Source: an uncultured archaeon
Lineage (GTDB): Archaea; Asgardarchaeota; Lokiarchaeia; Sigyniarchaeales; SOKP01
NCBI GenBank assembly: GCA_964508365.1
Contig: CAZDTP010000052.1
Coordinates: 1-29,397, forward strand
Direction of reading: 5' to 3'
DNA length: 29,397 nucleotides
Made by a program: the position numbers and the translations under genes. The notes under the pieces were generated by a model. That model was not told the DNA's origin, did no database searches, and worked only from the letters and a program-made list of their open reading frames with translations. Shown here in pieces: positions 579 through 7,714 of the stretch; position 1 is the first letter of the stretch, and each line of letters starts with the position of its first letter.

Positions 579-2456
579 TTGAACACTGAACGAGTCGTCG
601 AAGAAGCACGAGCGTATGCAGAAGAAATAATAGAGACGGTTCGAGAGCCTCTCCTTGTTCTTAATGAGGATCTTCGGGTGATCTCTGCGAATAAAAGTTT
701 CTACGATACGTTTCAAGTATCCCCAGAGGAGTCAGAGAAGGAACTTATTTACGATTTGGGAAACCAACAGTGGGACATCCCCAAGCTTCGTGAGTTGCTA
801 GAAGACATTCTCCCCAAGAACGCCAAATTCGAAGCCTACGAGGTGGAGCACGACTTCGAGACCATCGGAAAGCGAATAATGGTTCTCAATGCCCGAAAAA
901 TATATAGAGAGACTAATAATTCGCAAATAATCCTCCTTGCCATCGAAGACATTACCGAGCGCAGGAAGGCTGAACGAGTCGTCGAAGAAGCACGAGCGTA
1001 TGCAGAAGAAATAATAGAGACGGTTCGAGAGCCTCTCCTTGTTCTTAATGAGGATCTTCGGGTGATCTCTGCGAATAAAAGTTTCTACGATACGTTTCAA
1101 GTATCCCCAGAGGAGTCAGAGAAGGAACTTATTTACGATTTGGGAAACCAACAGTGGGACATCCCCAAGCTTCGTGAGTTGCTAGAAGACATTCTCCCCA
1201 AGAACGCCAAATTCGAAGCCTACGAGGTGGAGCACGACTTCGAGACCATCGGAAAGCGAATAATGGTTCTCAATGCCCGAAAAATATATAGAGAGACTAA
1301 TAATTCGCAAATGATCCTCCTTGCCATCGAAGACATTACCGACCGTAGGAAAGCAGAGAAAGAAAAAGAACAATTGCAATCAATTTTATCTAGTCAAAAG
1401 GATCCTGTTTTTGTCATATTTGGAGATTATACAATTGCTTTTATGAACCAATCAGCATATGAAATATTTGGAGCTGAGATTGCTGGGAAAAAATGCCACA
1501 ATATAATTAAAGGATCGGATTACCCGTGTGATCATTGTCCAATAAAAGCTATTACGGAATCTAATATCTTAGAAGTTCGGTTTGAACAATGCGTTATACT
1601 GCCCTATTCAGAGGAAACTAAATTTTTTGACGTGAAGGCTACACATATTGAAAATTATGACGGAAAGCCCGCAATCGTAGAATTATCAAGAGATATCACC
1701 CATCTTAGAATGGCAGAGAATGATTTAAAAAAATCTGAAAGTATGCTTCGTGAATCTCTTACTAAGACAAATTTTTATAAAGATTTACTCACTCACGATA
1801 TGAATAACATCTTACAAGGTATTTTATCAGGCGCGCAGTTTAGTGAACTAATTCATAATGATCCAAATCAACTTGAAGAACTACGATCTAGTATAAGAAT
1901 AATAAGAGAACAAGTCATTAGGGGAACAAATTTAATTCGTAATATTCGCAAGATTTCTCAACTTGAAGAACACGAAATACAGTTTAAAAAGGTTGAGATT
2001 TGTAATATTTTAAAAAATTCAATTTCAAATGTAAAAAACACTTACCAAGATAAAAATATAAACATACAAGTCGATTCTATCGATAAAAAGCTTTATGTTC
2101 AAATCGGAGAATTTTTAGAAGATGTGTTTGAAAACATCTTGATTAATGCAATAAGACATAATAAAAACCCATTGGTTAAAATCACCATTAGGATTTCCAA
2201 GTATAAAAAAAATAGCACAAATTATTTTAAAATAGAATTTCTGGATAACGGTGAAGGAATTGATGACAATCGAAAAAAGATTATCTTTCATAGAGGGAAC
2301 GCTAAAAAAGGAAGCGTTCCTGGAATGGGTTTAGGGCTGTCTCTTGTGAATGTTATTGTTGAAAGTTATAATGGAGAAATCTGGGTTGAAGATCGTATAA
2401 AAGGAGATTACACTAAAGGGAGTAATTTTGTTCTTTTAATACCAGAGGTGATCTAA
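579..2456 (+). CDS. PAS-domain sensor histidine kinase (three PAS domains plus HisKA/HATPase)
   Basis: H-box LLTHDMNNIL, N-box NILINAIRHN, G1 DNGEGI and G2 GMGLGLSLV. Two near-identical PAS domains (IIETVREPLLVL...) precede a Cys-containing PAS. Confidence 0.93.
   Translation: MNTERVVEEARAYAEEIIETVREPLLVLNEDLRVISANKSFYDTFQVSPEESEKELIYDLGNQQWDIPKLRELLEDILPKNAKFEAYEVEHDFETIGKRIMVLNARKIYRETNNSQIILLAIEDITERRKAERVVEEARAYAEEIIETVREPLLVLNEDLRVISANKSFYDTFQVSPEESEKELIYDLGNQQWDIPKLRELLEDILPKNAKFEAYEVEHDFETIGKRIMVLNARKIYRETNNSQMILLAIEDITDRRKAEKEKEQLQSILSSQKDPVFVIFGDYTIAFMNQSAYEIFGAEIAGKKCHNIIKGSDYPCDHCPIKAITESNILEVRFEQCVILPYSEETKFFDVKATHIENYDGKPAIVELSRDITHLRMAENDLKKSESMLRESLTKTNFYKDLLTHDMNNILQGILSGAQFSELIHNDPNQLEELRSSIRIIREQVIRGTNLIRNIRKISQLEEHEIQFKKVEICNILKNSISNVKNTYQDKNINIQVDSIDKKLYVQIGEFLEDVFENILINAIRHNKNPLVKITIRISKYKKNSTNYFKIEFLDNGEGIDDNRKKIIFHRGNAKKGSVPGMGLGLSLVNVIVESYNGEIWVEDRIKGDYTKGSNFVLLIPEVI
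586..1353 (+). repeat. Tandem duplication of a 384-bp (128-codon) PAS module
   Basis: 586-969 matches 970-1353. By eye there are only 4 mismatches (929/1313, 959/1343, 962/1346, 968/1352). Confidence 0.97.
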
Positions 2457-2457
2457 A

Positions 2458-2841
2458 GCGGAAAAAATATTCATCGTTGATGATGAAACTATACAACAAT
2501 ATTTTTACAGGAAACTTCTAACTTTTCATGGTTTTGAGGTTGTAGGTGTCGCAGAAGACGGAGAAGAAGCTATCAGCATGTTTAACTCATTCTCAGAGAA
2601 ACCAAAAGTAATTTTGATGGATAACCGGATGCCAAAAAAGAATGGAATTGAAGCCACAAAAGAGATTTTACAAATCGATAAAAATGTAAAGATTATATTT
2701 ATAAGTGCTGATGACAGTATTAAAGAAGAGGTGTTATCAATTGGAGCTTTTAGCTTTTGGGATAAACCTTTTATGATTGAATCATTAATAAATAAAATTA
2801 ATGCTGCATTGGACAGCTATGATTCCCACTATTCTACGTAA
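2458..2841 (+). CDS. Stand-alone CheY-like response regulator (start codon non-canonical or mutated)
   Basis: The frame is open from 2452: (A)EKIFIVDDE...ILMDNRMPKKNG...IFISAD...DKP. The ATG at 2578 would remove the beta1 DD acidic pocket. SD GAGGTGA lies 6 nt before a GCG at 2458. Confidence 0.8.
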   Translation, partial: AEKIFIVDDETIQQYFYRKLLTFHGFEVVGVAEDGEEAISMFNSFSEKPKVILMDNRMPKKNGIEATKEILQIDKNVKIIFISADDSIKEEVLSIGAFSFWDKPFMIESLINKINAALDSYDSHYST

Positions 2842-4522: not shown

Positions 4523-5803
4523 TTAAAGAATTGATAGATTAAATATAGTTATTGTAATAATTGTCATTGAAATCAGGATACTTATGGTAATAATAATATA
4601 AAAGATTAGATGAATGACATACACTTTTTTGTTCTTCTTCTTATTTAAAGCTCTTGTAGAATAAAATAATTTGTTCAATATTGCCGCTGATAATCCGATT
4701 GTTAACATCAATAACGCGTTTCCTTCGTTAATTAAACTTTTATAAAACGCAGTAGCAACGAAAAGAGATGAAGCACCCCCGGAAAGTAACCCGATTCCAA
4801 ATACAATTAGATAATATGCGATGATATTTAATTCAAAAAAACTTAACACGATTGTTAAAACTAATCCAATTGAGTATGTTCCCGCAAATATTAGTGCGCT
4901 CTTAATTGAGAGAGGATTTTTGATCTTTTCTAACATTAAATGAGTTTCTTTTTTTCTTAGTATTAAAAATGAACCAATTAATCCTATAATCGATGTAACT
5001 AGAATAGGATAAAGAGCATAACCTAATAAGGTAGGAGTAATCATTAACACAATGATCATCCTAATCAGCATAGTTTGAATAACAAGCCAAACTGATGAGG
5101 AAGAGGCACCAGCTTCAGCTAATTCAACGGTTGTAGCCTCGCTGTGAGCAAAACCTCCTAAAAATGAAATATAATATAGATTTTTTTCAGTTGTGCTTTT
5201 TAATAAAAAATAACTAAAATATTTTACAGTTAAAATTACGATGAATATTATAATTATTGATTTAACAACAATACCGAAAACTTGGAGATTATCTGGAATT
5301 AGGATATAAAGTAAAACTACGATTGCAATAAACTCAACGGTCCCAGTCCATTCAATTTCCTTTAATTTTCTTATTTTATAAAACTGCTTTTTTGTAGATA
5401 AGATAATCAAAAATATAACAGAAATGGCAATAGCAAGATATTCATTATAATAACACATTATACCAACAATCATCGCTAATATCATTGATAGAGTAGTAGT
5501 ATACCCAGGATCTTTTTCCCGAAATAACCTATATATAGATCCAATCAACAAAAAAATGATCATTCCGCCAAAAAACAATACAATTAGAATAAATCCTTCA
5601 GATACAGGTAAAAATGTATTATTTAAAATTATTAAAGAGGTCGAAATCATTGAAAAAAAGATGTGATCTCGAGCACCATATTGGGCTGCTACTCTAGTGC
5701 GCTCTATTCCTATAACGAAGCCACAAAAAAACGACACTATGATTTTAATGAATAAACCGTAAAATTCTGCTAATAATATCATTTGTGATAACAATAAATT
5801 CAC
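4523..5803 (-). CDS. MgtC/SapB-family membrane protein with DUF4010-like C-terminal region
   Basis: N-terminal GFVIGIER..YGARDH and GYTTT motifs, GGFAHSEATT, and about 12 hydrophobic segments. Confidence 0.8.
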   Translation of the reverse strand: MNLLLSQMILLAEFYGLFIKIIVSFFCGFVIGIERTRVAAQYGARDHIFFSMISTSLIILNNTFLPVSEGFILIVLFFGGMIIFLLIGSIYRLFREKDPGYTTTLSMILAMIVGIMCYYNEYLAIAISVIFLIILSTKKQFYKIRKLKEIEWTGTVEFIAIVVLLYILIPDNLQVFGIVVKSIIIIFIVILTVKYFSYFLLKSTTEKNLYYISFLGGFAHSEATTVELAEAGASSSSVWLVIQTMLIRMIIVLMITPTLLGYALYPILVTSIIGLIGSFLILRKKETHLMLEKIKNPLSIKSALIFAGTYSIGLVLTIVLSFFELNIIAYYLIVFGIGLLSGGASSLFVATAFYKSLINEGNALLMLTIGLSAAILNKLFYSTRALNKKKNKKVYVIHLIFYIIITISILISMTIITITIFNLSIL

Positions 5804-5931
5804 CTTTTATGTTAAATCATCTAACGAATTGATAAATATGTTGCATTAATCCTAAAAATGTTTTACGAAAAGAAATTATCACTTAGGAATTAGCTCTCGT
5901 AGAACTTAAAAAATAAAAGAAGAAAAAATTC

Positions 5932-6645
5932 TTACTCTAAATTATTTGCTAAGATATCTTCTAATTCTTTATCAGAAAGGAATCCCTTATGAGCCATCGT
6001 TTCCCTAATTTTTTCAATAACTTGAGGTGCTCCTTTTGATTCTTCAATGAAATCCTCTAAAGAAGTTAGTTTAAGTCTAACTGCTTCAATTTCTTTATTC
6101 TTCGCTTCAATTTCATTCTTAGCAGTGATTATTTCGTTTTCCTTCCTATCCAACTGTCCAGTTAACTCGTCTTTTAAGCTTTCGATCTCAACATACTTAT
6201 CAGAAATTGTCTGTTGAAGATCTTTCTTAACGCTTTCTAGCTCTCTTTCTTTTTGATCGTGTTCTTCTTTTAGAGAACCTACTTTTGGTTCTAATTCCTT
6301 CAGTTTTTCCTTTGTTTCATTATATTTCATCTCAAAGTCAGATTTGTCATTTCTTAATGAATCTACTTCCGTACTTATTTTATTTCTCTCTTCTGACACC
6401 GATGTTAACTCTGCTTTAGTTGAATTTAGATCTTGAGTAGTTCCGTTGAGCTTTTTTTCACTCGCAGCTAAATTCTCTTTAGTTTCGCTCAACTCTTTTG
6501 ATACGGACTCTAACTTCTTTTCTTTTTGCTTTAATTGCTGCTCTAAATCTTTAACTTTTGCTCTAAGGTCTAATAAAAATCGTCCATCTATTTTTTGGGA
6601 CTTTTCCGGGTTCATTTCCGCTTTTTGCCAGTCAATATTAGTAAT
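5932..6645 (-). CDS. Coiled-coil protein with SHOCT-like C-terminus, paralog 1 (probable ATT start at 6645; first ATG at 6615)
   Basis: Heptad-rich K/E body ending in HKGFLSDKELEDI. The segment ITNIDWQKAE upstream of the ATG is conserved with paralog 2. SD GGTGT lies 7 nt before the ATT. Confidence 0.85.
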   Translation of the reverse strand: MTNIDWQKAEMNPEKSQKIDGRFLLDLRAKVKDLEQQLKQKEKKLESVSKELSETKENLAASEKKLNGTTQDLNSTKAELTSVSEERNKISTEVDSLRNDKSDFEMKYNETKEKLKELEPKVGSLKEEHDQKERELESVKKDLQQTISDKYVEIESLKDELTGQLDRKENEIITAKNEIEAKNKEIEAVRLKLTSLEDFIEESKGAPQVIEKIRETMAHKGFLSDKELEDILANNLE

Positions 6646-6811
6646 ATTTCTTACACCTTCATTTATTTTCTTTTTATATCATTATTTTATATTATTAATT
6701 TTATGTTGTACAATATATAATTTTTTCAAATTATTTATTAACTCGTATGATATTTGCTTATGTAAGATTTTTTAAAATTCAAAGTTGTTGCTTAAGGCAA
6801 ACTCATATAAT

Positions 6812-7474
6812 CTAATCAAATTCTTTGAAAATATCTTCCAATTCCTTATCGGAAAGAAACCCTTTATGAACCATCATTTCTTTAATTCGTTCTAAAACTT
6901 TTGGTGTGGATCTTACTTCTGAAAGATTTGCTTCAAGCAATTTGATTTTATCTATAAATTCATCAGTTTCTTTTTGATTTGTTTTAATTACCTCATTTAG
7001 ATTATCTATCTCCTTTTTTCTTTTTTCTAAATCGTTCTTATAGTTTTCTATAGTCTTTTCCTTGAATTTAATTGTTTGTTCCATTTCACTTGCTTTTTTT
7101 GTCGTTAATTTTAATTCACTCTTCAAATTACTAATGTTATCGTTTGCTTCAGTAAGTTTTGCTTTGATTTCTTCAAGCTTTGGCTTTAATCGAGTTAATT
7201 CAATATCAGTATTTAGTTTATTTTCAGAAACATTATCCAAATTCTTCTTTGCAGATGAGAATTTCTCACTTATCTTAACAAGACTTTTCTCTCTTCCGGT
7301 TAACTTATTTTGAGTTTCCTTTAATTTTTCCTTGGTCTTCTGGAGTTTTTCCTTATTTTTATTTAAATCTCTTTCCAATTCGTTAATTTTAGCTTGTAAA
7401 TCTAATAAAACCCTTCCTTCTACTTTTTGAGCCTTTTCTGGGGCTAACTCCGCGCGTTCCCAATTAATAGTAAT
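6812..7474 (-). CDS. Coiled-coil protein with SHOCT-like C-terminus, paralog 2 (probable ATT start at 7474)
   Basis: The frame is open from TAA(7480-7478): ITINWERAELAPEKAQKVEGRVLLDLQAKINELE, with no ATG/GTG/TTG before 7378. It ends in HKGFLSDKELEDI, and SD GGTGA lies 7 nt before the ATT. Confidence 0.85.
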   Translation of the reverse strand: MTINWERAELAPEKAQKVEGRVLLDLQAKINELERDLNKNKEKLQKTKEKLKETQNKLTGREKSLVKISEKFSSAKKNLDNVSENKLNTDIELTRLKPKLEEIKAKLTEANDNISNLKSELKLTTKKASEMEQTIKFKEKTIENYKNDLEKRKKEIDNLNEVIKTNQKETDEFIDKIKLLEANLSEVRSTPKVLERIKEMMVHKGFLSDKELEDIFKEFD

Positions 7475-7714
7475 TTTTTACTCACCCTTTTGACTTATTT
7501 GTAAAAGTTTAAAACGTTTTTAGATTACCTAATTAAATTCTCAATTATTGTTTAGATTTTCTCTATATTGTTTTATCGCTATATAAATTAATTCTTCTTC
7601 TGCTATATTAAACTTTACGAAGCATTAATTTTTTATAATGCTAATTTATTTTATTGAAAATAGCTTTGGTTTATTTGAAAAGGCAAGATAATTTTATTTA
7701 ATGGAATTCTAATC

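Follow-up and report, generated by a model that had tools for sequence, protein, structure and literature searches.

Tandem coiled-coil paralogs with ATT starts in a Lokiarchaeia genome and a candidate linker family with exchangeable C-terminal ends

A 29,397-nucleotide stretch of DNA from an uncultured archaeon (the window) carries two adjacent genes on its minus strand, here called ccA (upstream) and ccB (downstream), whose products are coiled-coil paralogs. Each protein possesses a short conserved head, a long heptad rod and a C-terminal tail, and the head recurs throughout the class Lokiarchaeia on proteins with other C-terminal ends. The reading that we favor, and to which we would give about an even chance, is that ccA and ccB are modular linkers built as coiled-coil homodimers, in which the head docks and the tail can be exchanged, with a probable connection to lokiactin. 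The two would be long-retained paralogs within a modular linker family specific to Lokiarchaeia, each most likely forming a parallel homodimeric rod of approximately 28-30 nm. The head, which is strictly N-terminal and comprises about 20 residues plus the first rod turns, would act as a docking module for a partner present class-wide. The C-terminal module would be exchangeable: a helix-turn-helix tail (..M.HKGFLSDKELE..) in the archaeal family f1, to which tail-bearing genomes belong, a zinc (Zn) domain in a third paralog, and gelsolin in other orders. Such a linker could hold the target of its head at a fixed distance from a putative binding partner of its tail, or cross-link through self-association of the tail.

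The gene pair and its architecture

The two genes are tandem and co-oriented, with stop-to-stop frames, both on the minus strand, at 6812-7477 for ccA and 5932-6678 for ccB. BLASTP aligns the translations with 37% identity over 229 columns (E 8e-37), in agreement with the original prediction, made from the DNA letters, of a co-oriented paralog pair with a common head and tail. The N-terminal motif given there, W-x-x-A-E-x-x-P-E-K-x-Q-K-x-x-G-R-x-L-L-D-L-x-A-K, is found letter for letter in both proteins, the C-terminal motif P-x-V-x-E-x-I-x-E-x-M-x-HKGFLSDKELEDI is exact in both translations, and the lengths of about 220 and 237 amino acids (aa) hold, given translation from ATT codons.

Both proteins consist of a 35-aa head, a heptad rod of approximately 190-200 residues and a helix-turn-helix tail (HKGFLSDKELE). 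The head is the best-conserved part, with a mean column identity of 71% over 52 sequences from three paralog classes; the consensus of its profile (A2) is I.IDW.KAE..PEK.QKVEGR.LLDLRAK, which the third paralog matches at E 3.2e-23. That the middle of each protein is a heptad rod is confirmed by the 3.5-residue hydrophobic periodicity (power 20 in ccA and 12 in ccB), by the register runs, and by AlphaFold2 monomer models, built with family alignments, in which each rod is a single long helix. The register of ccA is constant from about residue 9 to 205, bar one brief local shift, and its model (predicted local distance difference test, pLDDT, of 86) contains a helix at residues 5-10, a loop, a helix at 16-204 (189 residues), a turn at 205-208 and a helix at 209-219. 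The best register of ccB changes in windows starting at about residues 126-144; its model (pLDDT 88) contains a helix at 6-11, a loop, a helix at 21-220 (200 residues), the KGFL turn at 221-224 and a helix at 225-236. A coiled coil rises 0.148 nm per residue, from which rods of approximately 28-30 nm would follow.

The rods had further been called diverged, but the divergence is not uniform: each ortholog set has its own patch conserved at 95% or more (Table 1). The patch of ccA is a candidate surface binding site, judged by its conservation. Orthologs of ccB retain ELE.VKKDLQQTISDKY.E.ESLK, which lies inside the stretch where the heptad register changes. Core "d" positions are often polar (N, T, R, K, S) in the N-terminal half of the rods, while nearly all "a" positions are Leu, Ile or Val. 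The charged residues are marginally periodic in both rods: the period is 9.75 residues in ccA (acidic power 6.3; 95% null, 5.9) and 8.5 residues in ccB (charge power 6.8; 95% null, 4.5).

Table 1. Positions of the features of ccA and ccB, and of the third paralog, with the basis for each
Feature	Position	Strand	Basis and remarks
ccA, upstream coiled-coil paralog	6812..7474	-	220 aa plus stop, ATT start; translation
ccB, downstream coiled-coil paralog	5932..6645	-	237 aa plus stop, ATT start; translation
ccA head, residues 1-35	7370..7474	-	Profile A2, E 4.4e-21; short helix, loop, first rod turns
ccB head, residues 1-36	6538..6645	-	Profile A2, E 5.6e-22
ccA conserved rod patch KL.GREKSL....EKF..AK..LD / E.KL..DIE.T.LK, residues 57-97	7184..7306	-	Columns of at least 95% identity, orthologs of two genera
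ccB conserved rod patch ELE.VKKDLQQTISDKYVEIESLK, residues 135-158	6172..6243	-	At least 95% conserved, orthologs of two genera
ccA tail, residues 189-220	6815..6910	-	Profile A3, E 2.8e-23; rod end, KGFL turn, terminal helix
ccB tail, residues 206-237	5935..6030	-	Profile A3, E 6.0e-24
ATT start codon of ccA	7472..7474	-	In-frame TAA at 7478-7480; nearest canonical start downstream is TTG 7378
GGTGA Shine-Dalgarno-like site of ccA	7482..7486	-	7 nucleotides ahead of ATT; read directly
ATT start codon of ccB	6643..6645	-	GGTG at 6654-6657, 8 nucleotides upstream
T-rich tract	5908..5928	-	Read directly (TTTTTTCTTCTTTTATTTTTT); immediately after the ccB stop
Third paralog	contig C55:7905-8825		Head, rod, C-terminal Zn ribbon CPMCG..YVGH.P.Y.KK.CKKCGYEF; same genome

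Distribution, synteny and age of the duplication

A 38-aa profile of the head finds 157 of the 158 other genomes of the class and none of 239 genomes from other classes of the phylum. Searched against 1.84 billion representative proteins it returns only 178 clusters, in which the genuine matches always lie within the first 60 or so residues and nearly always at residues 1-40. The tail is of narrower occurrence: among 134 genomes of family f1, 121 have a match to its profile, against none of 25 from the other families of the class, and in every tail-bearing protein read it stands behind a head. The class is Lokiarchaeia in the broad sense, as indicated by a member gelsolin with an MK-D1-type PEPVQV/PEPVHV linker together with proteins named Promethearchaeota or Helarchaeota; the appearance of these names on the relatives also bears out the earlier impression of an Asgard-like genome.

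Relatives of the pair are present in 39 of the 40 nearest genomes. A synteny survey established that the pairing is conserved, the genes being tandem at every locus read (two genera of one family, 27 species). The order DUF72 (divergent), ccA, ccB, (MgtC/DUF4010), DNA methylase is found at all 10 larger loci of genus g1, with MgtC absent from one of these and from all 7 loci of the second genus, g21; the DNA methylase 3' of the pair is type II/III-like and on the same strand at all loci. In the maximum-likelihood tree one clade (support 100/98) unites the upstream genes (ccA) of both genera, the ccB clades lie outside it, and a clade of their own (100/99) comprises the Zn-type proteins. As the ccA clade spans both genera, the duplication predates the split between them, and the two copies have been retained. 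The length of ccA is 220 or 221 aa in 23 of 27 species, whereas mid-rod indels give the ccB orthologs lengths of 218 to 258 aa.

Non-canonical start codons

The lengths and both heads described above exist only if translation begins at ATT. In ccA the first ATG, GTG or TTG lies 32 codons downstream of the ATT, beyond the entire head, and an in-frame TAA two codons upstream of the ATT means that no earlier start is possible. The sole canonical start of ccB, ATG 6615, falls within the conserved W..AE..PEK motif. Initiation at these usual codons (TTG 7378, ATG 6615) would remove or cut the N-terminal motif of the respective protein, and gene callers limited to ATG, GTG or TTG truncate or behead both genes, which is of relevance to annotation. 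Among 50-odd relatives the homologous start codon is mostly ATT, the others being ATA, GTT, ATG, TTG or GTG; it lies four codons ahead of the conserved Trp and 6-9 nucleotides past GGTG. The layout of GGTG, spacer and start is common to all relatives compared, often with an in-frame stop one or two codons upstream of the start. The corresponding region of the third paralog, on contig C55, reads TGA-GAA-AAA-ATT-TCT-GTA-GAC-TGG.

Independent DNA runs span both ATT codons with zero differences (for ccB, run X4). A contig from a sediment RNA library (X23) spans 6521-6671 with one mismatch, none being listed at the ccB start codon, so that there is no sign of editing. Frameshifting from the GTG inside the Shine-Dalgarno-like site, instead of initiation at ATT, was ruled out: the shift would be -1 for ccA and +1 for the C55 paralog, and for ccB this frame runs straight into TAA. 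A genome-wide count was made of codons that stand 6-8 nucleotides after GGTG and open a reading frame of at least 150 codons just past an in-frame stop. It returned 75 canonical starts versus 16 ATT, 12 ATA, 3 ATC and 6 ACG (37 in all), and the control motifs CACC, CCAC and CTCC gave 0-1 of each. The excess over the controls indicates that ATT starts are a habit of the lineage and not peculiar to ccA and ccB.

Among the public entries for ccB orthologs, several start from an internal Met or are cut at the N-terminus (P0006-P0009, of 146-148 aa and not approximately 237, and P0004, P0005 and P0010). Contig ends do not explain this, as one of the shortened entries lies on a 23.5-kb contig; the entries are consistent with gene callers missing non-canonical starts. 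In the genome of ccA and ccB a Kae1-like gene, a Rossmann-fold oxidoreductase and a small GTPase have N-terminal motifs upstream of any ATG, GTG or TTG. A response-regulator gene at 2445-2838 (+), directly behind the gene of a PAS histidine kinase (its Response_reg domain, E 6.7e-23, begins at frame residue 4), has no ATG, GTG or TTG for 40 codons and no ATT, ATA, ATC or ACG at normal spacing from its GAGGTGA. Its frame reads TGA-TCT-AAA-GCG-GAA-AAA-ATA, the first ATA lying 15 nucleotides past the Shine-Dalgarno sequence.

Contigs of two sediment RNA libraries match ccB at 6102-6251, 6317-6458 and 6369-6671 with 97-99% identity and ccA at 6970-7142 with approximately 93% identity. These give a hint of expression for parts of both genes, although transcription is not proven thereby. 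Three metagenome runs from salt marsh, probably its source, cover the whole of 5800-7700, and runs X6-X22 contain small parts of it. The T-rich tract behind ccB is a possible archaeal oligo-T terminator, to judge by its letters, between ccB and the MgtC/DUF4010 gene. A scan for bacterial sigma-70 promoters and hairpin terminators, a model unsuited to an archaeon, found sites no commoner than in shuffled sequence.

Relatives ending in zinc and gelsolin domains

Neither ccA nor ccB has Cys pairs or a C-terminal (CxxC)2 Zn domain with its conserved Tyr loop; both have the KGFLSD tail instead. Akil et al. (2022, PMC9433394) described a Loki-specific C-terminal (CxxC)2 domain, the "Zn domain," on two-domain gelsolins (2DGel) and on "unrelated multi-domain proteins," and reported a PEPVQV repeat linker for the MK-D1 gelsolin. 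A profile of the Zn domain of the head-rod proteins matches the C-termini of 2DGel proteins from four other genomes of the order (E 2.1e-11, 1.8e-9, 1.5e-7 and 5.7e-4) and, weakly, the 2DGel of the same genome as ccA and ccB (E 2.2e-4); its matches include the 2DGel that has a PEPVQV-type (PEPVQV/PEPVHV) repeat linker. That genome encodes six Zn-domain proteins, which are mostly a short coiled coil plus the Zn domain. Five are there besides the third paralog, and the positions listed with them are C34:40336-40497, C44:14541-14678, C21:44257-44391, C9:8695-8838, C19:41287-41439 and C21:47631-48152. The five are a Pro-rich protein with a Gln-rich coiled coil, a 418-aa coiled coil, a 78-aa stand-alone domain, and two short proteins, of 137 and 119 aa, whose N-terminal parts are helical or coiled-coil. 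The distance between the 2DGel gelsolin gene and one of the Zn-domain genes is 3 kb.

Five relatives (P0091, P0146, P0152, P0165 and P0166) have the architecture head-rod-gelsolin. Comparison of their C-terminal domain with domain 1 of the Loki 2DGel gelsolin using hhalign gave a probability of 96.2% (E 2.8e-9), and full-length genes are present at G162:C48:5985-7115 and G167:C2:124937-126097, in two further families of the class. We did not find this architecture in the Asgard gelsolin papers PMC7444086 and PMC9433394. Three of these proteins carry a CPKCG..CPNTFC zinc ribbon ahead of the gelsolin domain. Head-bearing proteins with a Zn or gelsolin C-terminus have total lengths of 183-400 aa. 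Gelsolin binds actin, and Loki gelsolins with two domains also end in the Zn domain; the family therefore probably belongs to the machinery associated with lokiactin. That one head-rod scaffold is found with gelsolin, with a domain known otherwise from gelsolins, or with the KGFLSD tail is our principal argument for modular linkers connected to actin.

A different partner is suggested by the neighborhood of the Zn-type paralog, where a tandem pair of paralogous membrane proteins, each ending in a left-handed beta-helix (LbH, hexapeptide-repeat) domain, adjoins it at all 15 loci (C55:6094-8825 and 14 in relatives), which represent three families (f1, f2 and f4) of the order. The LbH proteins could be partners of either the head or the Zn domain. 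Most f1 loci also have, near the Zn-type paralog, genes for a Gtr1/RagA-like GTPase, a ThiI/THUMP protein and a metallophosphoesterase.

Taken further, the constancy of this neighborhood could mean that the family forms a membrane or envelope scaffold unrelated to actin, with the head docking on the membrane-anchored LbH pair and ccA and ccB extending the system; the MgtC/DUF4010 membrane-protein gene that follows ccB in genus g1 would suit such a role. We regard this as rather unlikely. The LbH pair stands beside neither ccA and ccB nor, at the 4-kb loci compared, the head-rod-gelsolin genes; the interval from ccB to the methylase lacks MgtC in genus g21 and in a single g1 genome, so that this gene is dispensable to the arrangement; and the T-rich tract separates ccB from MgtC.

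Homodimer, heterodimer or filament

The original prediction had envisaged a heteromeric assembly. An obligate ccA/ccB heterodimer, a head-to-tail polymer, or both, in the manner of an intermediate-filament-like or tropomyosin-like heteropolymer, would agree with several features of the pair: the conserved head and tail at the two ends of a long rod, the heptads of which are essentially unbroken in ccA, the presence of both paralogs side by side since before the two genera split, the almost invariant, ruler-like length of ccA, and the marginal charge periods (9.75 and 8.5 residues), which are of the kind used for lateral packing of rods. Against such an assembly, ccB varies between 218 and 258 aa by mid-rod indels while ccA remains at 220/221 aa, and the register of ccB shifts where that of ccA is essentially continuous. 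The g-e' pairs favor homodimers: scored over the gap-free N-terminal rod half only, assuming parallel in-register dimers, the mean net number of attractive pairs is +4.5 for AA, +8.0 for BB and +2.6 for AB, and in none of the 21 species scored, which are related and not independent, does AB exceed the homodimer mean. From the fixed length of ccA and variable length of ccB, the register shift and the g-e' pairs, three indirect arguments drawn from the sequences, an in-register ccA/ccB heterodimer appears somewhat disfavored.

The head bears on the question of polymerization as well. It is common to proteins without the tail and with very different rod lengths, and is therefore better explained as a docking module than as the end of a filament; being found class-wide on proteins with Zn or gelsolin ends, its conserved job would be independent of the tail. 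The rods also have no 19.7- or 39.5-residue periodicity, and the matches to the Pfam families Filament (17-25 bits versus 40) and Tropomyosin (20.6 versus 38.6) are both below threshold. We consider such a heteromeric assembly unlikely on this evidence, although the near-invariant length of ccA still speaks for a ruler or polymer.

A more speculative variant, to which we attach little probability, makes ccA an Asgard tropomyosin analogue, i.e., a 220-aa, approximately 28-nm ruler that would polymerize by head-tail overlap along lokiactin, with ccB as a variable-length partner or competitor. If true, no coiled-coil cable that decorates filaments would be known earlier from the archaeal relatives of eukaryotes, and this one would originate from a head-rod scaffold that elsewhere carries gelsolin and Zn domains.

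Several points weigh against the homodimeric, actin-associated linker that we favor. The link to actin comes from domain fusions in relatives and not from ccA and ccB themselves. The genome in which the pair resides has no head-rod-gelsolin gene in a profile search, and the isolated Loki Zn domain did not bind F-actin in the work of Akil et al. (PMC9433394). The oligomeric state, partner and localization of ccA and ccB are proposals from monomer AlphaFold2 models and sequence. Conserved ends on a rod of fixed length, as in ccA, also fit end-to-end polymerization. Finally, the pair sits inside a collinear block (DUF72, membrane protein, DNA methylase), and synteny alone is no proof of functional coupling.

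Searches for known families

The prediction that this is an undescribed family stands, inasmuch as Pfam, NCBIfam, PADLOC, PDB profile and Foldseek searches returned generic coiled-coil noise only. Whole proteins gave sub-threshold coiled-coil matches in Pfam, NCBIfam and PADLOC (MAD, Fez1, Filament, SMC, Rad50, JetC, LmuB), and the isolated head and tail gave nothing meaningful in Pfam at E<=10. A PDB profile search with the whole family recovered myosin/tropomyosin coiled-coil noise, and with the head or tail alone it gave no match below E 0.07. Foldseek, run with the ccB model against the PDB, found nothing at E<=0.001 and a few rows at E>=5. The nearest clusters of a protein atlas are unnamed or crescentin-like with low recognition (1836) and are uninformative. 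No paper on the family was found, and neither the ESCRT survey PMC10936438 nor the Thor gelsolin paper PMC7444086 describes it.

Matches to filament-forming families are likewise of the coiled-coil type. Intermediate filament PF00038 scored 17.0 and 24.8 bits versus the Pfam gathering cut-off of 40, and PDB keratin matches (E 1e-4 or worse) cover coiled-coil segments only. Tropomyosin PF00261 reached 20.6 bits versus 38.6, and no periodicity peak near 19-20 or 39-40 residues was present in the ccA and ccB rods. Rod_CreS at 16-19 bits versus 100 represents coiled-coil noise. The description of the tail as SHOCT-like could not be upheld: PF09851 had no match in the 4.07-Mb genome at E<=0.1, the isolated tails had none at E<=10, and as a control the same profile found matches in 9 of 14 genomes. 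The tail, a predicted helix-turn-helix, may be SHOCT-like in shape, but membership is unsupported.

Several relatives have been named "chromosome segregation ATPase" by the Joint Genome Institute, and together with the weak SMC, Rad50, JetC and LmuB matches and the type II/III-like DNA methylase downstream on the same strand at all loci this raises SMC-like chromosome-segregation proteins, or a restriction-modification or defense unit with the methylase, as an explanation. It is very improbable. The SMC models score 37-40 bits versus cut-offs of 567-729 (e.g., 40 versus 567) and cover coiled-coil arms only; the 220-237 aa hold no ATPase head, everything outside the short head-loop and the KGFL turn being helix; no system-specific PADLOC model was matched; and the adjacency of the methylase falls within a long collinear block, so that we infer no functional connection from it. 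Membership of the SMC family itself is effectively refuted.

Relation to characterized systems

Lokiarchaeia build an actin cytoskeleton and long protrusions. To our knowledge only actin, profilins and gelsolins have so far been characterized in this system. A class-restricted family, almost universal among the genomes searched, with a proposed docking head, a rod of defined length and an exchangeable end is a concrete candidate for the missing layer of cytoskeletal linkers, and it offers testable handles in the head peptide, the tail, the conserved rod patches and the neighboring membrane beta-helix pair.

The tail resembles SHOCT PF09851 in its short C-terminal helix, a G-hydrophobic-hydrophobic-S/T-D/E-x-E turn and a second helix, according to our reading of the motif and the AlphaFold2 models, and differs in having no profile match. 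With intermediate filaments, crescentin and FilP the pair shares the head-rod-tail layout and weak Filament and Rod_CreS matches. The rods, however, are approximately 190-200 aa versus about 310 in intermediate filaments, and are unequal and variable when set against the type I/II keratins. The likeness to tropomyosin lies in a parallel two-chain heptad rod of approximately 200-280 aa, which for ccA and ccB presumes the proposed dimer state, in conserved ends and, in ccA only, in strict length. Unlike tropomyosin, ccA and ccB have a Pfam score below the cut-off, no 19.7/39.5-residue period, a variable length in the case of ccB, and a head that is common to proteins without the tail.

The closest comparisons are with Asgard gelsolins. 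In Thor 1DGelX (Akil et al. 2020, PMC7444086) a gelsolin domain is accompanied by a domain of unknown function that is predicted to be a coiled coil. The five head-rod-gelsolin relatives of ccA and ccB likewise combine gelsolin with a coiled coil, a likeness by description only, whereas ccA and ccB are without a gelsolin domain. The Loki Zn-domain proteins (Loki2DGel, MKD1-2DGel; PMC9433394) are related through the third paralog, which shares the head and rod of ccA and ccB and ends in a Zn domain; both the Zn domain and the head are limited to Loki-type archaea, the former always C-terminal and the latter always N-terminal. By contrast, ccA and ccB have the KGFLSD tail and no Zn domain, and the head-rod family is absent from that paper. 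New here are the head-rod-gelsolin fusions, the restriction of the tail to one family while the head is class-wide, the dated duplication, the fixed length of ccA versus the variable length of ccB, and the conserved LbH neighbors of the Zn-type paralog.

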